This document shows positions 8,360 through 49,386 of a stretch of 51,532 nt of DNA, in pieces. The translations under genes were made by a program, and so were the position numbers. How positions within the stretch are numbered: the first letter of the stretch is position 1; the number at the start of each line of letters is the position of its first letter. Origin of the DNA: Parcubacteria group bacterium GW2011_GWD2_38_11 (GTDB taxonomy: Bacteria > Patescibacteriota > Minisyncoccia > Moranbacterales > GWC2-37-73); the NCBI GenBank assembly GCA_000992325.1, contig LBTZ01000002.1, forward strand, positions 1 through 51,532. Direction: 5' to 3'. The notes under the pieces were generated by a model. The model was given only the letters and a program-made list of their open reading frames with translations. It did no database searches and was not told where the DNA came from.

Positions 8360-8716
8360 TTATTTACATGAACTGATTATTTTTTGAAATATCATTGTAA
8401 GTTCATGATTTTCTTGCCAATACTTCCTTATCTCATCTTTTCTCTCCAATAAGCATCCAGCAATCATCCTCAGCCAATATTTTGTCTCTTGAGCTTCTTT
8501 TTTGCAGATAAATATTTTATTTCGAAAATCCTTCTTTGAACTTGCATTGTTTGCTTCACAATAGTTTGCTCCAATGCTAGTCCCACTTCTTATTAGCTGG
8601 CTAATCAGAGGCCTTGTTATAGTATCTTGTTTTATACTTTTACAAAATTCTATAATATTTTCTCCGAATATAGCTGTTCTTTCTTCTAGATTGTATTTAT
8701 TTGAAAATTGTTCCAT
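8360..8716 (-). CDS. four-helix-bundle protein (23S rRNA intervening-sequence protein family, TIGR02436-like)
   Basis: 118 aa with the hallmark SGTSIGANYCEA...DF..K..IC.KEA.ET.YWL. Paralogue of 17234..17599. Confidence 0.88.
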   Translation of the reverse strand: MEQFSNKYNLEERTAIFGENIIEFCKSIKQDTITRPLISQLIRSGTSIGANYCEANNASSKKDFRNKIFICKKEAQETKYWLRMIAGCLLERKDEIRKYWQENHELTMIFQKIISSCK

Positions 8717-12630: not shown

Positions 12631-12668
12631 ATGCTAATTATGCGAATAAATACCAATCCACGAATTAC
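12631..12668. repeat. left inverted-repeat arm flanking the GxxExxY gene
   Basis: atgctaattatgcgaataaataccaatccacgaattac compared with the reverse complement of 13108-13146 (atgctaatccacgaataaatgccaatccactaattgcgaa). Confidence 0.7.
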
Positions 12669-13075
12669 TAATACTTAAATTCAGAATTTATGACTCTTTT
12701 AGGCTTTAAATATTTATCTCTGAAATTTATCAACAAGCCCAACTTTTTATTTAAAGCAATGAGATATCTTTTAGTTTGATAAAAATCAGTTCTTTCAATT
12801 AATCTTTTTGCCTTAAGCTCTAAAATAATTGAGTCTTCTATCAAAAAATCAATCTTATTTCTATTTATTTTTTCTCCCTCAAAAGAAACAGGCAGAAATT
12901 CTTCTCTTTTGTAGTTTATATTGTTTTCCTTTAGATTTTTTTCTAAGCAATCTCCATACTGCTTTTCATTGCAATACCTGCCCAATTCATTGTGAACAGC
13001 AAATAAAATTCCACCTATCTTATATGATAGCTCGGGATAAATAAGTTCTTGTTTCATTTTTGTTTTTATTTGCAA
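12668..13075 (-). CDS. GxxExxY family protein (PD-(D/E)XK nuclease-like fold)
   Basis: 135 aa. The layout HNELG....E..Y...[16 protein letters not shown] and LGLLINF matches the GxxExxY family (TIGR04256-like). Confidence 0.75.
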
Positions 13076-17233: not shown

Positions 17234-17599
17234 ATGACAAATGGAAAACCAACAAAATTTGATTTAGAGGAGCGTACGGCAATTTTTGGAGAAAAAATTA
17301 TTAAATTTTCTAAATGTATTTCCAAAAGTGAAGTAACGAAACCACTGATCAGCCAAATTGTAAGAAGCGGAACAAGTATTGGCGCAAATTATATGGAAGC
17401 TGATGGAGCGGAATCTCGAAAAGACTTTATCCACAAATTAGGCATTTGCAAAAAAGAAAGTAAGGAAACCAAGCATTGGCTTAGAATGATTGCCGTTGCA
17501 GACTCGGAAGTAAGTAACGAGTCTAGAGAATTATGGAGGGAATGCCAAGAACTTACGCTAATATTTTCAGCAATAATTACAAAGACAAAACAAAATTGA
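17234..17599 (+). CDS. four-helix-bundle protein (23S rRNA IVS protein family)
   Basis: 121 aa reading SGTSIGANYMEADGAESRKDFIHKLGICKKESKETKHWLRMI. Paralogue of 8360..8716. Confidence 0.88.
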   Translation: MTNGKPTKFDLEERTAIFGEKIIKFSKCISKSEVTKPLISQIVRSGTSIGANYMEADGAESRKDFIHKLGICKKESKETKHWLRMIAVADSEVSNESRELWRECQELTLIFSAIITKTKQN

Positions 17600-18967: not shown

Positions 18968-19056
18968 ATAACTAGGTACCCGGGACAAATCCCAGAGGGA
19001 AAGCTAGCAATAGCTACCGGAATATCTGACCGAGGCGCAAGCTTCGGTTTTGTTTT
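18968..19056 (+). ncRNA. candidate ~90-nt structured small RNA (unclassified)
   Basis: It lies between the promoter-like site at 18933-18961 and the terminator at 19030-19056. Internal hairpins are ggga-caaa-tccc and agcta-gcaa-tagct (GNRA loop). The region is unusually GC-rich for local intergenic DNA, and no credible ORF is present (track ORF 18818..19111 looks spurious). Confidence 0.3.
19030..19056 (+). terminator. intrinsic terminator with GCAA tetraloop
   Basis: ccgaggc-gcaa-gcttcgg (7 bp including one G.U) followed by ttttgtttt. Confidence 0.6.
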
Positions 19057-19116: not shown

Positions 19117-19611
19117 TCACAATCTTTTTTCATTCTTTTCATCAAAATGTGATCTGCTAAGACCAGCGACCATATCAGCCAAACGCACACAAGCAATTTG
19201 ATCATCCTTTATCATTTTAACTTTACTAGCAGATACACCTTTATCACGCAAGATTTTCTTTATTTTCAATTCATACCATCTTGGCTTTTTACCATCAATA
19301 TATATACAAGAAATACGTTTTTCTATCGCCATATGCGAAAGAATTCTTTCCAACTCTTTTGCTGGATTCACTGGATTTTTGATTATGGCAATTTTAACTT
19401 TGAAATTTAACTTCAAAGCTTTTTGAATAAATTTTTCTTTGAATTTCCAGGCAACTTCAGACCAGTGAAATTTTTCTATTTTAAGCTCCTTTTCAATTTC
19501 ACAAATTCTCTTTTCAATTGCGTTAAAATCTTTAACTTCAATATACACTAAGGTAAATGAGGAATGATCAACTTTTTTATGTATTCCAGATTCATCAATA
19601 AAAATATGCAT
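19117..19611 (-). CDS. DUF3800-like protein
   Basis: 164 aa. The N-terminal MHIFIDESG and C-terminal ACVRLADMVAG resemble the DUF3800 signature as I recall it. Confidence 0.65.
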   Translation of the reverse strand: MHIFIDESGIHKKVDHSSFTLVYIEVKDFNAIEKRICEIEKELKIEKFHWSEVAWKFKEKFIQKALKLNFKVKIAIIKNPVNPAKELERILSHMAIEKRISCIYIDGKKPRWYELKIKKILRDKGVSASKVKMIKDDQIACVRLADMVAGLSRSHFDEKNEKRL

Positions 19612-19818
19612 TTGTTTTTTGTTTTTATTGTTTATAATGATATTATATCACTTATTTATTTTGACTGCAAGAACAGGGTTAATATTAATCAGTCAATACT
19701 AACCCTAATTAATATTTTTACTTATTCCAGCCATATATAACTGGGTTTTTGACGTTGTTTAATCCCCTACATCCATATATTAATTACAGGCGGATTTAAA
19801 GAATAATCCTCCACCACT

Positions 19819-19917
19819 TTATAAACTTTAGAAACCTTATGAACTTTATGAACTATTTTTATAAACCTTAAAAACTTTATGAACATTATGAACTATTTTT
19901 TATAAGCCTTAAAAACC
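19819..19917 (+). repeat. ~41-bp AT-rich tandem repeat, 2.4 copies
   Basis: ttataaactttagaaaccttatgaactttatgaactattttt / ataaaccttaaaaactttatgaacattatgaactatttttt / ataagccttaaaaacc. Confidence 0.85.
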
Positions 19918-19950: not shown

Positions 19951-20006
19951 AAAATAGCTTTAATAAAAGCGTTTATGCGCTTTTTTACATACAGCCACCC
20001 CTATTA

Positions 20007-20110
20007 TGTCATTCCCGTGAAAACGGGAATCCAGGCCCGCATTTTATTCTGTCATTCCGGACTTGCCGTGCCCGCCCCTGGAGGGATCCGGAATCCAGAC
20101 CCGCATTTTA
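20007..20110 (+). repeat. two tandem GC-rich palindromic mini-elements (tgtcattcc...ggaatccag.cccgcatttta)
   Basis: 20007-20046 reads tgtcattcccgtgaaaacgggaatccaggcccgcatttta. 20050-20110 reads tgtcattccggacttgccgtgcccgcccctggagggatccggaatccagacccgcatttta. Confidence 0.85.
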
Positions 20111-20190
20111 ACTTTACAAACCTTATAACTTTATAAACTTTCTGCATTCTTACTTTACAAACCTTAGAAACTTTATGAACTTTACGAACC
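20111..20190 (+). repeat. AT-rich repeat related to 19819-19917
   Basis: actttacaaaccttataactttataaacttt ... tactttacaaaccttagaaactttatgaactttacgaacc. It overlaps the start of the truncated GT2. Confidence 0.7.
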
Positions 20191-20501
20191 CAAAAACATT
20201 CATCGTCATCCCCGCTTTCAATGAAGAAACGGTTATTCAGGACGTCATCCGAGAAGTTCAGGGTGCTGGATATGAAAATATTATTGTTGTTGATGATGGA
20301 AGCTCCGACAACACTCAAGCAAAAGCCAAGGAGCTGATTGGAAAATTAGCTTTGAGACACAAAATCAATCGCGGCAAAGGCGGAGCAACCAAAACTGGCA
20401 TCGAAGCCGCCAAACTATTGGGCGCCGAAATAATAGTGACGATTGACGGCGGTCAGCATGATCCAAAAGACATTTTGGATGCACCAAGAACAGTAGAATG
20501 A
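20175..20501 (+). pseudogene. truncated GT2 glycosyltransferase (N-terminal fragment only)
   Basis: 108 aa. FIVIPAFNEE, VVDDGSSDNT and TIDGGQHDP are the first half of a GT2/GtrB-type domain. The frame then stops and a strong terminator follows. The start codon lies inside a repeat. Confidence 0.6.
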
Positions 20502-20579: not shown

Positions 20580-21872
20580 TTACGGTCTTCCAATACTGGA
20601 ATATTTAAAACCCAGCTGTTTCATTTCTGAAGGATTGAAAATATTTCGACCGTCAACAATCTTAGGCGTTTCCATGAGTGACTTCACTTTTTTCAGATCT
20701 GCACTTTTAAAACATTCCCATTCAGTGACAATCAAGAGAATTTCTGCTCCATGCACCGCTTCATACATATCATCACAATGAGTAATCTTTCCAGAAAATT
20801 CCCTGCGAACATTTGCCACAGGATCAAACACACGAACAATTGCCCCATCTTCCAGCAACTCCTTTATGATTTTGATTGAAGGCGCTTCACGCACATCATC
20901 AGTTTCGGGCTTAAAAGCGACACCCCAGATAGCGATTACTCGTTTTTTCAGGGTCATGATTGCCATTTCTTCAACCTTGCGCATGAAATAACAAATTTGA
21001 GATTCATTAACATCAACCACGGTCTGAAAAATTGCATGGTCGATGCGATGATGTTTGGCAATGGCAATGAGATTTTTAGTGTCCTTGGGAAAACAAGAAC
21101 CTCCATAGCCAACGCCGGATTGCAAAAAATATGGACCAATTCTTTTGTCGAGTCCTACACCTTGCATCACGTTTTCAATGTTGGCGCCAGATGCTTCGCA
21201 AATTTGAGCCAAAGCATTGGCCGAAGAAATACGTTGCGCCAACATGAAGTTAGCAGTGAGTTTGATCATCTCCGCACTGCAAGTGTCAGTCACCACCTTG
21301 GGACATTCGATCTTTTCATACAATTGCCGGAGACAACCTGTTGCAATAATGTCACCACCCATAATAATACGGTCAGGCTGCATAAAGTCAGCAACCGCAT
21401 TTCCTTCCCTGAGGGTTTCAGGATTAGATCCGACATGAAATGACGTGACACTATTATGCGAAACAAGAGACTCGGAAATCTGCTGCGCAGTTCCAATGGG
21501 AACTGTCGATTTGCCGATGACAACCAACATGTTTTTTGTCGTGTGCAGCGCAATCTGCTTGGCAGTCTGTGCCACATAAAACAAATCCGCTCTGCCGTCG
21601 CGCTCTCGTTCAGGAGTGCCAACAGCGATCATGGCAACGTCATATTCATTGATTTCCGAACCAATATCAACTTTAAATGACAGCCTGCCTTCTTCAAGAT
21701 TCTTTTTCAACAGTTCCGTGAGTCCTGGTTCATAAATCGGACATCCTCCATTTTGAAGCGTTTCAATTTTTTCAGGGTCAATATCAACCCCGCAGACTAA
21801 ATGCCCAAGATCAGCCAAACAAACCGCTGTGACAAGCCCAACATACCCAGTTCCCACAATGTACACTTTCAT
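20580..21872 (-). CDS. UDP-glucose/GDP-mannose dehydrogenase family protein (second copy)
   Basis: 430 aa with MKVYIVGTGYVGLVTA and GGSCFPKD. Strong SD (aaggaggaagcgaATG). Confidence 0.88.
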   Translation of the reverse strand: MKVYIVGTGYVGLVTAVCLADLGHLVCGVDIDPEKIETLQNGGCPIYEPGLTELLKKNLEEGRLSFKVDIGSEINEYDVAMIAVGTPERERDGRADLFYVAQTAKQIALHTTKNMLVVIGKSTVPIGTAQQISESLVSHNSVTSFHVGSNPETLREGNAVADFMQPDRIIMGGDIIATGCLRQLYEKIECPKVVTDTCSAEMIKLTANFMLAQRISSANALAQICEASGANIENVMQGVGLDKRIGPYFLQSGVGYGGSCFPKDTKNLIAIAKHHRIDHAIFQTVVDVNESQICYFMRKVEEMAIMTLKKRVIAIWGVAFKPETDDVREAPSIKIIKELLEDGAIVRVFDPVANVRREFSGKITHCDDMYEAVHGAEILLIVTEWECFKSADLKKVKSLMETPKIVDGRNIFNPSEMKQLGFKYSSIGRP

Positions 21873-23082: not shown

Positions 23083-23173
23083 TGTCATTCCCGCGGAGGC
23101 GGGTCTCGATGCCCCTTGAGGGTAAGTCCAGGTTCTAATGCGGGCCTAGATTCCCTTTTTCAAGGGAATGACA
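23083..23173. repeat. two GC-rich mini-elements in head-to-head (inverted) orientation
   Basis: It begins tgtcattcccgcggaggcggg and ends taatgcgggcctagattccctttttcaagggaatgaca. The end is the reverse complement of a 20007-type unit. Confidence 0.8.
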
Positions 23174-23240
23174 TACCACGAATTCAGTTGATTCGGTATA
23201 GCCACCATCATACTTTTCGCTAAAGTATGCTTCATTTTAA

Positions 23241-27461: not shown

Positions 27462-30119
27462 TTAAAGCTTTACATCCTTTTTAAGCGCAATATCACGCCT
27501 TGATCTCCTCCAACCATAACCCAAATAACCGAGGCATGCAAGCAGGGTTACAAGGGAAATGCCAGCTCCAACATAGAAAAGTCGCTGCGGCCAAAATTCG
27601 ACAACGAGCTCCATATCATACGTGCCATCTGAATTTTTTTTGCAAAAACTCTCATTGTCATTCCCGCGAAGGCGGGAATCCAGTCCGCACAACTCCTCAA
27701 CATCAACGATCCAACTGTTTGCATATCCGTTAGCCATAAGATGACTTTCTTCTGGCAATTGCACCACGCTATCATTATGAGCGAAGTCGAGAAATCTGTC
27801 CTCACTGTCTCCCGCCTTTTTTGCCAACCAAGTTTCAAAAATGTTCCCATTTGGCAAATTATCATTTTGAATCGTGCCTTGAAAATTTTTGGAAATAAAA
27901 TCAATATTGTATTTTTCAATATAATCCGGAACTTCTTCTTGCTTGTTACTGTCCCACTTCTGATGGCCAATTTCCTTTTCTTTGCCATCCCCCAACGTGC
28001 TAACTAACCCATTATCCAAAAAGCCAGCCAACTCTTCTTTTGATGCTTGGTCATCACCATTACCATCTAAAATCTTGTAATTATCCAAATTTGCATCTTG
28101 TATCTTGTTTTTTGTTTTTTGTTTTGGCGAAGCCAAATAGGCTTTCCATCCATCATGATATCCTTCAGACATTACCAACGGAAATACGCCTCTTGCATTA
28201 TTAATTCTAACCCTATATTTAGTTGGATTAATTTTTGAAAATTCCAAAAATGGCAACACCTTTTCATCTTCTTTTTGAGTGAAATATTGCCTTATAGAAT
28301 CCTTTCTATTAAAATTTTGCTTTGATAGGAATACTGACGAATTGATTTCGAAATTTTTATCAGCAAATACCTTCCCAATTTCAGATTCATCTAATTGTGA
28401 GATAAGCAACTTATTTGGAATGTAAAAATGAGGAAGGAAGGAATTATTATCCACAGAATAAATATCAAGCCTTCCAATACTTTTCTTATTTAATTCTTTT
28501 ATTTCTTCAAAACAGGAACTTGTTGATGGTAAAACGTCATTTTGCATTATCACATTTTTTATATTTTGAACAGCGAATGCCTTCCTCAAAATATCAATGT
28601 CTCTCTTGGTATTGTATTCGTTATAACATAATTGTTTTTTAATATTTTCATCGACGTATTTACCACTAAAAGGCGTGAAACTGGTGGTTTGTTTCATAAA
28701 GAACCGCAAGATGTTTGCTGAATCAAAATTATTTCCATTCCAGCTAAATAAGGTGTATATAAACTTGGAACTAAAGTATTGATCTGGAAAAATCTTGTAT
28801 GTATTTATTATTTTTTTATCCTTAAGTGCGACTTCATTTTCAAAATAATATCCAGGAACCTTAGTGGGCTTAGTCAAGGTGACAAAAAATTTATCAAAAA
28901 AATAATAGGAACTTAGCACAACCATAGGTATAAGAAAAAGCATTTTTATCTTATTATTTGATTTCATTTTTTCCAAAGCCAATATAAATAAAATTACAAA
29001 GGCAAAATGAACAACGAACTGAAATTTGAAGAGGGCTCTAAATAGACTAAATCCTGGAATATATTCCCAGAGCAATAAAAATAATCTACCCAGTGGATTA
29101 TTGGTTCCCATGGAAAATGCATAAGAAAATACGAAGATAACAATAAAAAAAATACTCAATTTCTTATTCCGAGAGCCCTTTGCGTAAAAAAATAAATGAA
29201 TACAGAAAACAAAAATGGCTATACTAAAAGCTGCAACTACTATATAATTTCTCGTAAAAAAACCTGCCGGATGATTTGGGTTATTTACGAAACTATGGGA
29301 GAACATGAATGGCAAAAAACTTTTAATTTGCCTACTACTTTCAGACAATACCCCCAACGCTGCATCATCCGAGTAAAAAACTATTGATTGATTTGGGCTG
29401 TTTTTTTTAATCAGAGCATCATAAGCTGGATTCATCAACCAAAAGGCATTCAAAAAAATAAAAAAACATATCGCAAACAATGACTTTGCTTTATTTTTCA
29501 ATAAATATCGCCATTTAAAAACTACTACATATAAGAAAACCACAGTCAATAGTAATACAGTGTTGAGGATATAAGAATTTACAAATAAAACAAGCATCGA
29601 CAGAACAAACACATCTTTGAATACGATCGTTCTACCTCTACAGCTGAACAAGTAGCCAATGAATAAATTAACGAATACAAAAGAGTATGCAATATCACTC
29701 TGACTCAAAACTATACCAGCAATAAGAGGATTAACAACCACGAAAAACATTACCAGCACATGGTCAATAATATTTGCCTGCTTAAATACGTTTTTTGTAA
29801 GATATATACTAGATACAATCAATCCGAAAATTGTTCCATAAAAATATAGTATGCTAACAAAATATACATCAAAAAAATGTGTCAGTATGTAAAAAATGGA
29901 TTGGAAGGGAAAAGAGATAATCATCATTGGTATGTAGTATCCATTGTCGTTATTCATCCATATAAAAGGATTCAGTAAATAAGAATTATTCTTCCACAAA
30001 CTAAAATTTCCATCTCCAAACAAAATTAATCCATTTTGACTTTTATAAAAAACAAAAGAAAAAAACAGTATACTAACTGCTGCCAACAAGAGACCAAGTT
30101 TTTTATTTATATTGAACAT
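27462..30119 (-). CDS. large polytopic GT-C-like membrane protein (YfhO-like, tentative) carrying an in-frame repeat insertion
   Basis: 885 aa with the same architecture as 23670..25847. The shared C-terminal block reads GYANSW...VVEFWPQRLFYVG plus a terminal TM. It contains the GC-rich element at 27656-27690. Confidence 0.65.
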   Translation of the reverse strand: MFNINKKLGLLLAAVSILFFSFVFYKSQNGLILFGDGNFSLWKNNSYLLNPFIWMNNDNGYYIPMMIISFPFQSIFYILTHFFDVYFVSILYFYGTIFGLIVSSIYLTKNVFKQANIIDHVLVMFFVVVNPLIAGIVLSQSDIAYSFVFVNLFIGYLFSCRGRTIVFKDVFVLSMLVLFVNSYILNTVLLLTVVFLYVVVFKWRYLLKNKAKSLFAICFFIFLNAFWLMNPAYDALIKKNSPNQSIVFYSDDAALGVLSESSRQIKSFLPFMFSHSFVNNPNHPAGFFTRNYIVVAAFSIAIFVFCIHLFFYAKGSRNKKLSIFFIVIFVFSYAFSMGTNNPLGRLFLLLWEYIPGFSLFRALFKFQFVVHFAFVILFILALEKMKSNNKIKMLFLIPMVVLSSYYFFDKFFVTLTKPTKVPGYYFENEVALKDKKIINTYKIFPDQYFSSKFIYTLFSWNGNNFDSANILRFFMKQTTSFTPFSGKYVDENIKKQLCYNEYNTKRDIDILRKAFAVQNIKNVIMQNDVLPSTSSCFEEIKELNKKSIGRLDIYSVDNNSFLPHFYIPNKLLISQLDESEIGKVFADKNFEINSSVFLSKQNFNRKDSIRQYFTQKEDEKVLPFLEFSKINPTKYRVRINNARGVFPLVMSEGYHDGWKAYLASPKQKTKNKIQDANLDNYKILDGNGDDQASKEELAGFLDNGLVSTLGDGKEKEIGHQKWDSNKQEEVPDYIEKYNIDFISKNFQGTIQNDNLPNGNIFETWLAKKAGDSEDRFLDFAHNDSVVQLPEESHLMANGYANSWIVDVEELCGLDSRLRGNDNESFCKKNSDGTYDMELVVEFWPQRLFYVGAGISLVTLLACLGYLGYGWRRSRRDIALKKDVKL
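27656..27690. repeat. GC-rich mini-element inside the 885-aa CDS
   Basis: tgtcattcccgcgaaggcgggaatccagtccgcac. It is translated on the minus strand as LCGLDSRLRGNDN. Confidence 0.85.
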
Positions 30120-40497: not shown

Positions 40498-41304
40498 TTA
40501 TCTTATTAAAAATTTAATTCCTACCAATCCCCTCAAAAAATACATTCCAAATGTTAAAAATGGATGCGCAAACATCTTTCCCCATTTTCCATCTTCCACA
40601 AAAACTCCCAGAAATCTGTAACATAACCCAAACTGCTTTTTCAAATCCTCATCATTTTTTCCCCATTTTTCAATATAGTCATCGAATTTCTTAGCGTAGT
40701 ACCCCTTTTTACTCAAATATTTCCCAAGCTCAAATTCTGCCTCATTATGATATATTGGAGTTTTTATAAGTTCCACCTTTCCAATACTGCGCAATTTCTT
40801 GTCCAAATCCCAGTCCTCTGGCCCAGTCAAATTCTCATCAAATCCACCAACTTGCTGAAAGGAGCTTTTTTTGATAAAACGCGCACAATCAATCACGGTT
40901 GCATCATAAAAACTTCTTTCAAATCTGCGAACCTTGCTGAAAAACTTGTCACCCATCACAATTTCGGAAACATATAATGCAACAATTTCTGAATTATTTG
41001 TCACTTTTTCCACGCAATCTCTGATAACATCTTGATGCAAAATCATGTCCGCATCAAGATACATGAAATATTCCCCGTCAGCCTTTTCCACTCCAAAATT
41101 TCTCTGCGCGCTTCTTTCCGGCCCTTTATCAAAAACTTTATCCGTATATTTCAATGATATCTCTTTGGTTTTATCATCAGACTCATTATCAACGACAATA
41201 ATTTCAATCAAATCTTGCGGATAAGATTGAGCCTTAATAGATTTGAGACAATTCTCAATATTTTTTTCCTCGTTTTTAGTTGTAATGATGACCGAAACTA
41301 ACAT
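40498..41304 (-). CDS. GT2 family glycosyltransferase
   Basis: 268 aa with [25 protein letters not shown] and YLDADM. Confidence 0.85.
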
Positions 41305-41312
41305 AGTTTGTA

Positions 41313-41822
41313 TTAGTTACTATATTTTAGAAATGGAGCATTTTTCCTCTCAATCAGGAATTTTTGATAATGCTGCGGTGTGACAATGAGTTTACTTTCG
41401 AAATTCTTACTTGCCCTGAAAATGATTGAATACGCTTTGACTGACATGCCATCATTCTGAAAGGTGTCGAAACACAAATGAAAAAACATACCCAGTGCAA
41501 GCGCAAATGAAACTGATTTCAAAACCAGTTGTTTTTTGACCAAAAAGGCCACTGCTAATAGGATGATAACATATTCCCACCCATGAAACAACATATATAT
41601 CTTCCCGCTTTGCAAAAATTGATAGCCATGAGAAAAATATCCCAAGTCAAACTTAAAGCCAAGTGCCAAGAAATAATCAATAAAATGATCCATATCAACC
41701 AACACTCCGCCAACAATCGCCGCCACAAAAGAGACTAGAGGGTTTTTCCATAGTCTCCAGGTGATAATGCCCGCAAGAATGCTCAGGGCAACATGAATGG
41801 ACAGATGCAGTGTTAAACTCAT
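41313..41822 (-). CDS. membrane protein, DUF457/YdjM-like metal-dependent hydrolase (tentative)
   Basis: The track ORF extends to 41897. The ATG at 41822 (MSLTLHLSIHV) overlaps the upstream stop as ATGA. It has 4-5 TM helices and a VDMDHFIDY motif. Confidence 0.5.
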   Translation of the reverse strand: MSLTLHLSIHVALSILAGIITWRLWKNPLVSFVAAIVGGVLVDMDHFIDYFLALGFKFDLGYFSHGYQFLQSGKIYMLFHGWEYVIILLAVAFLVKKQLVLKSVSFALALGMFFHLCFDTFQNDGMSVKAYSIIFRASKNFESKLIVTPQHYQKFLIERKNAPFLKYSN

Positions 41823-43381
41823 AGTGATGTTGGTTTTTCCTTGTTGCTTTTCCCAAAATCCATCAGATGGCCCATCACCTTTAATCCAGCAACCCAAATA
41901 TATTTCACATCAGCAAAGGTTCGAATGGACAAGAGTTTTTTGATGATGAATTTTGGAGTTATGAATGATTTGTATAGGCTCTGCACAAGTTCCTTGGCAT
42001 CCTGAGATGAAAGTGGTGATTTCATGACCATTTCTCGTTGATCAAATCGCGAATATTCTCTGGTGACCAACAAATCATTTTCGTCGCAATCCTTATACAA
42101 AGGCGTGCCCGGATATGGAATTACGATCGTTCCCTGCAGTGTATCCACATAGCCCTTCTTGAAAAGATCCGCTGCCTTGTCGATGGTTTTTTGAGCCATC
42201 TCTTTTGTTTCCCAGGGATATCCGATCATGGTTGTGATATGGGGCTCCAATCCTGCCTCTTTGCACATCTTGAGACCGGGTTCAATCTCTTCCACTTTCA
42301 AATTCTTGCATATTTTGTCCAATGTTTCCTGATTTGCCGATTCCAATCCAAAAAGAATGAATCGAAAGCCTGCTCGCTTCATCAAGCGCCACACTCGCGG
42401 CTCTGAAATCCCGGTGATACGCATGTTGCAGCTCATCACAACTTTTTTGTTGTATCCGCGTTCAATCATGCCTTTGCAAAATTCTTCCAGCCATGGACCA
42501 ATTGGCAAACTTCCAGAATCTTCCATGATTTCCTTTACGCCAAGATCAATCAAGTTCCCCACCTCATCCAAAGCATTTTTTGCGCTGCGTGTTCTGAAAT
42601 GTTTTCCTGGAAAAAATGTTGTCCAGCTGCAAAAAGTGCATTTTCCCCACCAACAATCACGTCCGCTCATCATATATGTCCCAGGAGTGAACTTGAAATT
42701 TCCATTTTTATAGGCATAATCCTTCCATTTGGTGAGTTCGCGATCAATCATTGGCAAGGTGTCCAAGTCATGGTTTGAAAGATCCGATGGACCTGAATTA
42801 GTGATTGTCATTCCGGACTCCGATCCGGAATCTAGAGATTCCTGAACTAAATTCAAGGCAGGCTCCGAAACAAGCTCAGGATGACACTCGCTGGGCTGAC
42901 GGTACCAAAAACCTCCTTCAAGTTCGCTGTTTTTACTGAGATGATCAGCCAAGCTCAAAAGCATAAAGTCATAGTCGCCTGAAGCAATCACGAAATCAAC
43001 TTTTGACTTTTCCATTGTTTCCTCTGGCCTCGCGGTCACATGATCTCCCATCATCACCACCTTGGAATTAGGAAGTTTTTCTTTTAATTCACCCACGATT
43101 TTCCAATGCATTTCAACCACTGGAGTTTTGGTTTCAATCGCAATCAGATCAGGTTTCTGCTCAATGATATCTGCAAGCCATTGCTGATATGTTTTTTCCT
43201 CAGCAATTCCATCATCCCAAATAACTTCATATCCCTTTTCCTTGAGCAATGTGGCTGCATAGGCAGGAATCACGGGATAGATATATGTTGGGTTATTGAA
43301 CCACTGAAATTGTCTGTTCTGCGAGAGAAGAGCAATTCCCTTGTTTGATTCTAGCGGTGGATAAGAAATGGCTATTCGCAT
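41819..43381 (-). CDS. B12-binding-domain radical SAM protein
   Basis: 520 aa. The N-terminal region is cobalamin-binding-like (DLIAIETKTPVV...VMMGDHVT). A cluster motif RDCWWGKCTFC opens the radical SAM core, and a C-terminal extension follows. It carries a repeat insertion at 42806-42886. Confidence 0.85.
   Translation of the reverse strand: MRIAISYPPLESNKGIALLSQNRQFQWFNNPTYIYPVIPAYAATLLKEKGYEVIWDDGIAEEKTYQQWLADIIEQKPDLIAIETKTPVVEMHWKIVGELKEKLPNSKVVMMGDHVTARPEETMEKSKVDFVIASGDYDFMLLSLADHLSKNSELEGGFWYRQPSECHPELVSEPALNLVQESLDSGSESGMTITNSGPSDLSNHDLDTLPMIDRELTKWKDYAYKNGNFKFTPGTYMMSGRDCWWGKCTFCSWTTFFPGKHFRTRSAKNALDEVGNLIDLGVKEIMEDSGSLPIGPWLEEFCKGMIERGYNKKVVMSCNMRITGISEPRVWRLMKRAGFRFILFGLESANQETLDKICKNLKVEEIEPGLKMCKEAGLEPHITTMIGYPWETKEMAQKTIDKAADLFKKGYVDTLQGTIVIPYPGTPLYKDCDENDLLVTREYSRFDQREMVMKSPLSSQDAKELVQSLYKSFITPKFIIKKLLSIRTFADVKYIWVAGLKVMGHLMDFGKSNKEKPTSL
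42806..42886. repeat. composite of two GC-rich mini-elements inside the radical SAM CDS
   Basis: tgtcattccggactccgatccggaatctag followed by ...cctgaactaaattcaaggcaggctccgaaacaagctcaggatgaca. It is translated as CHPELVSEPALNLVQESLDSGSESGMT. Confidence 0.8.
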
Positions 43382-48299: not shown

Positions 48300-48625
48300 A
48301 AAAGCTCCTTTCGTCCTACTGGTTGGATTTGAACTGCTTTATATATCTACTCTATTGTTATGTTAAAACTACTAAATCACCATCCTACCTTTATACAGCA
48401 TTTTCAATATCCTGTCAAGCCCCCGTAATATCCCAATAGCTTGGAAACTTTTCTGGCATACTAATTAGTTATCAATTAACGTTCCAAGCTATTAGTTAGA
48501 AGACCACCCCCTAGAAATACATCCATTTATAGAATGTAACATTTTTCACATAAACCCTTCCACAAACCCGACGCCATATCTTTTTAATTCAACATATATC
48601 TTCTCACCACCTTCCAAACCAACAT

Positions 48626-48663
48626 ATACCAAAACCAGACGACCGCATAGTTTTGGTATATGT
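48626..48663. repeat. 36-38 bp palindromic repeat, copy 1
   Basis: ataccaaaaccagacgaccgcatagttttggtatatg, with a 10-bp stem ataccaaaac/gttttggtat. Confidence 0.85.
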
Positions 48664-48769: not shown

Positions 48770-49324
48770 TCAATACAATTTGAATTTTAATTTCAACTCT
48801 TCTTCATTTGAAATATTAACAATTTCCCCATAGCGGACCAAATTTCGAAGCTGAAAATATTCCGTGATAAAATTTATTTCATCCAAACATGGAAAAGGAT
48901 GCACAAAAACAGATTTTTGTATCTCCCTAAATCCAATATCTTTCAATTTATCTCTAAGGATATTTCTTTCCGATCTTCTCTTTTCTGGAATATCAAACAT
49001 CACAATTCTCCATTTCTTGTCCCACCGCAGAGGTTTGGCAATTTCGATTGTACCTATTTTAAATTCAAGCGTTTTCAGTTTTCCTTTTTCGGTTAACACG
49101 ATCTTGGTTAATCCATTTTCTTGCTCAATATATTCAACTAAACGCTCTTGTTTAAATTCTTTTACTACGCGATAAAGATACTGTTTATTTATTTCATGCC
49201 AATCCTTTTTGAGGGTTTTAAAAACATAGCGTTGTGATTTTGGATTATTCGCAAAACCAAGTGCCAACCCTCCAGCAAGAAGAAGTAATACCTTTCTTTT
49301 AATTGGGCTTCTGATTACTTTCAT
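48770..49324 (-). CDS. PaaX-like / Cas2-fold domain protein (possible transcriptional regulator)
   Basis: 184 aa. The N-terminal region is winged-helix-like. The C-terminal WDKKWRIVMFDIPEKRRSERNILRDKLKDIGFREIQKSVFVHP matches the PaaX C-terminal/Cas2-like ferredoxin-fold pattern as I recall it. Confidence 0.55.
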   Translation of the reverse strand: MKVIRSPIKRKVLLLLAGGLALGFANNPKSQRYVFKTLKKDWHEINKQYLYRVVKEFKQERLVEYIEQENGLTKIVLTEKGKLKTLEFKIGTIEIAKPLRWDKKWRIVMFDIPEKRRSERNILRDKLKDIGFREIQKSVFVHPFPCLDEINFITEYFQLRNLVRYGEIVNISNEEELKLKFKLY

Positions 49325-49350: not shown

Positions 49351-49386
49351 ATACCAAAACTCGACGACCGCATAGTTTTGGCATAT
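49351..49386. repeat. 36-38 bp palindromic repeat, copy 2
   Basis: ataccaaaactcgacgaccgcatagttttggcatat. It differs from copy 1 at 3 positions. Confidence 0.85.

Follow-up and report, generated by a model that had tools for sequence, protein, structure and literature searches.

How does a GC-rich palindrome come to lie inside the reading frame of a membrane glycosyltransferase gene, and to which repeat family does it belong? This question is raised by a 51,532-bp contig (LBTZ01000002.1) of Parcubacteria group bacterium GW2011_GWD2_38_11, a Candidatus Moranbacteria genome of the Candidate Phyla Radiation (CPR). The whole contig is the window analyzed here, and copy counts, gene scans and coordinates refer to it unless said otherwise. 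An earlier reading of the letters (the original prediction) had proposed a palindromic mini-element inserted in frame in an 885-aa YfhO-like gene, in the manner of Rickettsia palindromic elements (RPEs). Our analysis makes it very probable that a single 27-bp unit of the NTS/SRM repeat class (SRM, Ssn-related motif) was copied into an AftD-like GT-C gene, where it is most likely tolerated selfish DNA.

Results

An in-frame hairpin in an intact gene

The window reads tgtcattcccgcgaaggcgggaatccagtccgcac at 27656-27690 on the plus strand, exactly as originally quoted. The hairpin core of this segment (27657..27683, plus strand; 27 nt, GTCATTCCCGCGAAGGCGGGAATCCAG) corresponds to minus-strand codons 813-821 (LDSRLRGND) of the host gene, and has no counterpart in orthologues. 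Within the core, a stem of 8 perfectly matched base pairs (ATTCCCGC/GCGGGAAT) closes a GAAG loop; the near-perfect hairpin described earlier is thus real, although the 9-bp arms claimed for it include one non-pairing C. Folded as single-stranded DNA, the copy reached -8.9 kcal/mol (z = -3.65), which 0 of 200 shuffles equaled. The GC content is 63% for the core versus 32.5% for the host gene, bearing out the contrast in base composition initially reported.

The minus-strand open reading frame (ORF; 27462..30119, 885 aa) reads through the copy as ...ELCGLDSRLRGNDNESFCKK..., and its frame is intact despite the insert, as had been predicted; the downstream conserved motifs are intact as well. Since the unit measures exactly nine codons and carries no stop in five of the six frames, the host gene stays in frame. 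Removing CTG GAT TCC CGC CTT CGC GGG AAT GAC, the reverse complement of 27657-27683, leaves C-GNESF-C.

Identity of the repeat family

Searching the literature for the ATTCCC-N8-GGGAAT core, we arrived at a 2025 paper describing the Ssn nucleases (PMC11893778). The dRS3 repeat is contained in the Neisseria NTS (CGTCATTCCCGCGMAVGCGGGAATCYRG; PMC11893778; PMC1797815). SsnA, a 94-aa GIY-YIG protein that is inactive on RNA, binds the NTS in single-stranded DNA and cleaves only one of its strands (PMC11893778). In Neisseria and Wolbachia, small GIY-YIG Ssn nucleases bind and cleave repeats of the NTS/SRM family in single-stranded form, and NTS-like "Ssn-related motifs" flank ssn genes across phyla (PMC11893778).

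The sole mismatch of 27656-27683 (TGTCATTCCCGCGAAGGCGGGAATCCAG) to the NTS consensus is the first base, T for C; the published search criterion for NTS was at most one mismatch to CGTCATTCCCGCGMAVGCGGGAATCYRG (PMC11893778). Exact matches to the published degenerate SRM motif, HGTCWYN(0-2)YYVSBRHN(0-5)WNVSBRGN(0-2)RNCYNB (PMC11893778), occur twice in the window (27656-27683 and 20007-20034), versus a mean of 0.04 in dinucleotide shuffles. The genic copy keeps all bases reported critical for SsnA, namely the palindrome, the C directly after it, and the upstream GTC. Furthermore, the exact 27-mer is the second commonest variant (28/187) among matches to GTCATTCCC-N8-GGGAATCCAG in 120 viral/prophage contigs. 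An Rfam scan of the window returned only a DUF3800-II RNA, and no Rfam family covers the genic element. Judged by its sequence, the element is an NTS/SRM-class hairpin repeat. These matches, together with further window copies where chance predicts zero, support the earlier assignment to a repeated GC-rich hairpin family. The mRNA around the copy did not fold more stably than shuffles (z = -0.62); because this fold is unremarkable and SsnA is inactive on RNA, a role at the RNA level is not supported.

The likeness to RPEs on which the original prediction relied concerns behavior. Ogata et al. reportedly described these elements in 2000, in frame in unrelated housekeeping genes. RPEs are palindromic selfish repeats that lie in frame in unrelated genes, at positions compatible with the fold, and leave those genes intact (PMC10969869). 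A palindromic repeat in frame in loops of unrelated genes is also what we observe, and this part of the comparison holds. RPEs, however, are approximately 150 bp long, specific to Rickettsia, divided into ten families and encode a conserved peptide (PMC10969869). Whereas their peptide module spans about 50 aa and they have no known partner enzyme, the CPR unit matches NTS/SRM, measures 27 nt (9 aa) or 81 nt as a doublet, is distributed over different phyla, and is associated with GIY-YIG genes of the Ssn type. Set against that description, membership in, or direct homology to, an RPE family is extremely improbable.

The host protein and its Cys-Cys loop

The host protein matched neither YfhO nor any other Pfam family even at E<=1, while distant members of its family match PF11847 (GT-C_AftD). 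A structural model built from a 74-sequence alignment (an earlier 7-sequence model, with a mean predicted local distance difference test score (pLDDT) of 47.9, was unusable and was replaced) reached a mean pLDDT of 89.4 and a predicted TM-score (pTM) of 0.88. Its best structural match was mycobacterial AftD (6w98, E 2.6e-8), followed by ArnT and oligosaccharyltransferases; a PDB profile search with the host protein was uninformative. Family matches and model together mark the host as an AftD-like GT-C membrane glycosyltransferase, not demonstrably a YfhO-like one as first annotated. The same 885-aa protein is found on 15 contigs, of which the four shown come from different groundwater samples in ENA and JGI, which argues that the insert is not an assembly artefact.

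The best homologue belongs to Candidatus Moranbacteria GW2011_GWC2_37_8, where it lies in a syntenic glycan-biosynthesis locus. The insert had been put at 28 residues by comparison with a paralogue that is only 21-28% identical to the host protein. Orthologues give a smaller value: all six true homologues show C-x5-C where the window has C-x14-C, with ELC, the second Cys and KN-DG-YD conserved, and a codon alignment with the syntenic GW2011_GWC2_37_8 orthologue shows a net gain of 27 nt in the window gene. Because the flanking motifs are kept and the net gain is 27 nt, we assign the insert to residues 813-821 (nine codons); the paralogue comparison overstated it, and the expectation that orthologues lack the segment was borne out. 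Of 74 aligned representatives of this family, which has 5,785 detectable members, 60 have an x4-x6 loop; the two cysteines are each retained in at least 90%. By this alignment, ELC...C-KNSDGTYDM is ancestral to the orthologue group.

That the segment is instead ancestral and was deleted in the orthologues, or is a chance palindrome, has a practically negligible probability. Nothing beyond the presence of the segment speaks for it, whereas the segment is missing from all six closer homologues and from 60/74 family representatives, is identical at 27/27 positions to a repeat found across phyla, has twice the GC content of the gene, and has a shuffle expectation of zero.

In the protein, the beta-rich C-terminal domain houses the insert in its Cys811...Cys826 loop, approximately 25 residues before the C-terminal transmembrane helix (from about residue 845), consistent with the proposed position in a tolerant loop just before the last helix. 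The pLDDT falls to 66 in the block containing residues 811-820, from 96 and 95 in the preceding blocks, and recovers to 83 in the next, 95 at 831-840 and 89 at 841-850. This drop in the model fits a flexible loop between strands, and to that extent agrees with a surface loop, for which structure prediction had been suggested as a test. By analogy with other GT-C enzymes, the C-terminal soluble domain should be extracytoplasmic, where Cys811 and Cys826 would form a disulfide outside the cell; the insert-bearing protein is presumably made and functional.

Directly adjacent to the core, TCCGCA (27684..27689, plus strand) is the reverse complement of the Cys811-Gly812 codons (TGC GGA), and resembles the GCCCGCA tail of the intergenic copies. 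The adjoining bases, Cys codon included, resemble this tail in other genic copies as well (L266, the P0149 gene; L270, the P0197 gene). Given this resemblance, the inserted piece may exceed 27 nt, with a compensating loss.

Recurrent insertions at the same loop

The Cys-Cys loop carries inserts in several other family members. P0149 bears CGLDSRLRGNDNISC, with unit, orientation, frame and junction as in the window; P0171 has a long-loop version of the unit; P0153 has a GTCATCCTGAA...TTCAGGATC unit starting at the Cys codon; P0197 has a GTCATTGCGA... hairpin; and P0130 has a different GC-rich hairpin. All five inserts fold as DNA hairpins. In a neighbor-joining tree calculated with the loop masked, long-loop alleles appeared as scattered singletons and the window protein paired with the short-loop P0001; this scatter argues for several independent insertion events. 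Since the loop is structurally permissive and hairpin repeats entered it independently in several other lineages, we consider the insert most likely to be selfish DNA that is tolerated, rather than a functional module.

The P0149 allele invites another explanation, that a homologue already carrying the segment (the P0149/P0171 lineage) passed it on through gene conversion or lateral exchange. The two genes agree in junction (TGC GGA/element/AAT), orientation and frame, within flanking codons that have diverged. Because these flanking codons are not shared, however, a converted tract could hardly be longer than the element itself, and in other lineages this loop is occupied by other hairpin families, which fits a target that is permissive or preferred. 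We regard such an exchange as unlikely. The shared junction may reflect target preference, selection keeping the Cys codon, or gene conversion.

Further copies in the window

A 22-nt word, with up to three mismatches, occurred three times in the window, versus 0.00 expected. Five further copies were found, four intergenic and one inside another gene. The intergenic recurrence originally noticed at 20007-20110 and 23083-23173 therefore stands, with four copies counted where chance predicts none; the copy at 42807-42835 had been missed. The first intergenic copy (20007..20043, plus strand; TGTCATTCCCGTGAAAACGGGAATCCAGGCCCGCATT) includes a tail, and its first 28 nt are those of a copy upstream of an Ssn-like gene in L163, a metagenome-assembled genome (MAG) of Moraniibacteriota. 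It is followed by a long-loop variant (20050..20108, plus strand) with the same 5' box, 3' box and tail; a variant resembling the latter also occurs in another Moraniibacteriota MAG, L142. A 93-nt inverted doublet (23083..23175), in which 23083-23113 (plus) faces 23137-23175 (minus), lies between convergent genes. The fifth further copy (42807-42835, plus strand) is part of a doublet inside a radical-SAM gene.

The intergenic copies bear an extra conserved tail, GCCCGCATT (consensus CCAG[G/A]CCCGCATT), in which they differ from published NTS/SRM repeats. We tried the tail GGAATCCAGRCCCGCATT as a lineage-specific probe and rejected it: about half of its 58 genome matches were chance matches in GC-rich genomes. 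The true copies, about 25, came from Saccharibacteria, Moraniibacteriota, Parcubacteria, Colwellbacteria, Bdellovibrionales and other MAGs.

Every copy in the window falls in the glycan-biosynthesis region between 20 and 43 kb. Such clustering would be in keeping with retention of the genic copy for a role in DNA, as an Ssn cleavage site that limits or shapes how incoming single-stranded DNA recombines across a variable surface-glycan locus. Arrays of dRS3/NTS in Neisseria are concentrated around capsule and further surface loci, and SsnA reduces transformation when the DNA carries NTS; the genic copy retains every SsnA-critical base. The sample is one window, however, the perfect consensus of the copy is equally explained by recent insertion, and no Ssn gene has been shown for this genome, of which the window was searched. 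We consider selection for such a role doubtful; a DNA-level influence on recombination at this variable glycan locus is possible by analogy with the proposal for Neisseria.

Several observations concern the surroundings of these copies. The 39-nt copies at 20005-20043 and 23137-23175 are inverted, 92% complementary, and bracket a 3.1-kb segment with UDP-glucose dehydrogenase and epimerase genes, whose gene order differs from that of the GWC2_37_8 locus; a simple inversion between the two copies fails to explain the changed order. AT-rich arrays with a 9-bp period (consensus ACTTTATAA) at 19816-19917 and 20103-20189 bracket the two tandem copies, and a similar actttatgaactt run follows an SRM in L142. 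A 108-aa ORF beside the copies (20175..20501, plus strand), with a Glycos_transf_2 match in its database record, is likely a remnant of a family 2 glycosyltransferase (GT2) gene.

Other in-frame insertions and a census of copies

A gene for a B12-binding radical-SAM protein (41819..43381, minus strand; 520 aa) carries an 81-nt inverted doublet (42806..42886, minus strand; 27 codons) made of a GTCATCCTGAGC... long-loop unit and CTAGATTCCGGATCGGAGTCCGGAATGACA, read in frame as residues 166-192 (CHPELVSEPALNLVQESLDSGSESGMT). No insert is present at this site in 12 of 20 aligned orthologues, the closest of which, P0011, reads RDGQIG. The remaining 8/20, the window protein included, carry inserts, seven of them with repeat-derived peptides such as CHSRESGNL...WISAFAGMT. 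As different hairpin repeats occur there in scattered lineages, we regard the Cys-Cys loop and this radical-SAM loop as insertion hot spots.

Similarly, the GT2 gene at 40498..41304 (minus strand) provides an empty-site counterpart. Its orthologue in Moranbacteria GW2011_GWC2_37_8 (L001:1077-1913) carries GTCATTCCTGTGGAGGCAGGAATCCAG in frame (L001 1383-1409), translated as VIPVEAGIQ, whereas the window gene is near-identical outside the loop and lacks this SRM. In-frame insertion with orthologues lacking the segment was thus observed in three genes in two syntenic genomes.

Counted across other genomes, as had been suggested at the outset, copies lay within ORFs of at least 200 aa in 6/71 cases in CPR and other MAG loci and 29/282 cases in viral contigs, versus 57-66% for random positions, with the caveat that some long ORFs in GC-rich contigs may be spurious. 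The stop-containing frame of the unit was never used among the genic copies in this census. The repeat family is multi-copy and mainly intergenic, with a steady in-frame minority.

Association with Ssn-like genes

In L163, a 111-aa GIY-YIG gene (PF01541, E 2.5e-15) is flanked by inward-facing copies of the repeat; window 20007-20034 and the upstream copy share all 28 nt, and the GCCCGCA tail overlaps the 3' end of the gene. Searches with the encoded protein against NCBIfam and PDB gave no specific match, and were uninformative as to cd10448. The same NTS-gene-NTS layout is present in L082 and L179. Among the 69 metagenome loci with enough flank (GC from 30% to 67%) that encode relatives 59-79% identical to the L163 protein, the repeat is found on at least one side in 61 and on both sides in 43. 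The repeat is therefore linked to Ssn-like genes, both in a related Moraniibacteriota genome and in metagenome loci with close relatives of that gene.

This association also bears on whether the element is a REP/REPIN mobilized by a RAYT (an IS200/IS605-like Y1 transposase). The resemblance extends to short hairpins, inverted doublets of the REPIN type (23083-23175 and 42806-42886), a mainly intergenic distribution, and a gene for a small nuclease with copies of its own repeat on either side, a parallel also drawn by the Ssn authors (PMC11893778). In contrast to REP/REPIN-RAYT systems, the gene repeatedly flanked by the repeat encodes a GIY-YIG protein of about 100 aa rather than a Y1 HUH transposase, the 5' box differs (the GTAG type is absent), and no RAYT gene or Y1 transposase (Y1_Tnp) was found among the larger ORFs of the window. 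A REP/REPIN identity is consequently very unlikely.

Other features of the window

The DUF3800-II RNA detected by Rfam (18968-19031, plus strand; 73 bits) adjoins a DUF3800 gene on the opposite strand (19117..19611, minus strand), just past the 3' end of that gene. Two paralogous '23S rRNA intervening sequence' proteins and a small PD-(D/E)XK nuclease (8360..8716, minus strand; 17234..17599, plus strand; 12668..13075, minus strand) are encoded among glycosyltransferase genes. Two 36-nt palindromic repeats, 92% identical (48624-48661 and 49351-49386), flank a gene (48770..49324, minus strand) for a 184-aa protein with PaaX_M (Cas2-like) and CRISPR_Cas2 Pfam matches. The UDP-glucose dehydrogenase gene, intact in the window (20580..21872) and in L006, is split into two ORFs in an ENA assembly from the same population (L004 18248-19538), representing either a strain variant or an assembly error.

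Discussion

We propose that a 27-bp unit was copied into the glycosyltransferase coding sequence, which would have lengthened a loop of the C-terminal domain from Cys-x5-Cys to Cys-x14-Cys just before the membrane anchor. Spread of the unit would involve single-stranded DNA in a process linked to Ssn-type nucleases, and only copies that come in multiples of three and lie in tolerant loops would survive selection.

Several points weigh against this explanation. No empty-site allele was found: the 90% identity cluster comprises only the 885-aa protein and a 197-aa fragment, and a gapped DNA pattern across the insertion site retrieved none from JGI metagenomes. As the nearest orthologue is, moreover, only 58% identical, the boundaries and age of the insertion are not fixed. 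The window itself, which alone was searched, contains no Ssn/GIY-YIG, RAYT or transposase gene, and we know of no demonstration of transposition activity for Ssn proteins. Lastly, P0149, with only 30% overall identity and different flanking codons, has the same junction; together with the tail-like 6 nt, this could mean gene conversion, lateral segment exchange or target preference rather than simple independent insertion.

The last of these options can be extended. As a tentative idea, which we hold to be improbable, the Ssn-associated repeats of CPR bacteria would insert with a frame-keeping target preference (TGC GGA/AAT in distant homologues; the same radical-SAM loop), and would repeatedly supply loop variation to enzymes of cell-envelope glycosylation. 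If true, this would constitute the first evidence, albeit indirect, for true mobility of the Ssn/SRM system, and the repeats would not be only passive junk.

Copying of an NTS/SRM unit into a tolerant loop, the explanation we prefer, builds on features shared with the published repeats: a near-identical sequence, a hairpin, a directional 5' GTC box and 3' C, multiple and mainly intergenic copies, inverted pairs, and the flanking of small GIY-YIG genes in an NTS-ssn-NTS arrangement (L163 and the metagenome loci). The differences lie in host and location. The published survey covered NCBI reference and representative genomes, and its text makes no mention of Patescibacteria (CPR), the host lineage here; nor does the text discuss coding-sequence copies (PMC11893778). 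Here, conserved proteins contain in-frame copies, and the same loops are hit repeatedly. The Neisseria NTS, unlike these in-frame copies, is described as noncoding. Our literature searches returned no report of in-frame NTS/SRM copies or of NTS/SRM repeats in CPR. Neither the repeat family nor in-frame insertion is new in itself; RPE-like in-frame behavior of NTS/SRM is seen here in a new phylum, and the recurrent-site pattern deserves follow-up.

CPR proteins contain repeat-derived peptides, among them LDSRLRGND, VIPAKAGIQ and CHSRESGNL...WIPAFAGMT, and these should be masked before sequences are aligned, trees are built or structures are predicted. For the Ssn/NTS system, whose description dates only from 2025, the window offers concrete filled and empty sites at which movement of the repeats can be studied. 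NTS/SRM repeats occur in ultra-small CPR bacteria and enter genes in frame as 27-nt units or 81-nt doublets, extending the phenomenon of selfish DNA inside proteins beyond Rickettsia.

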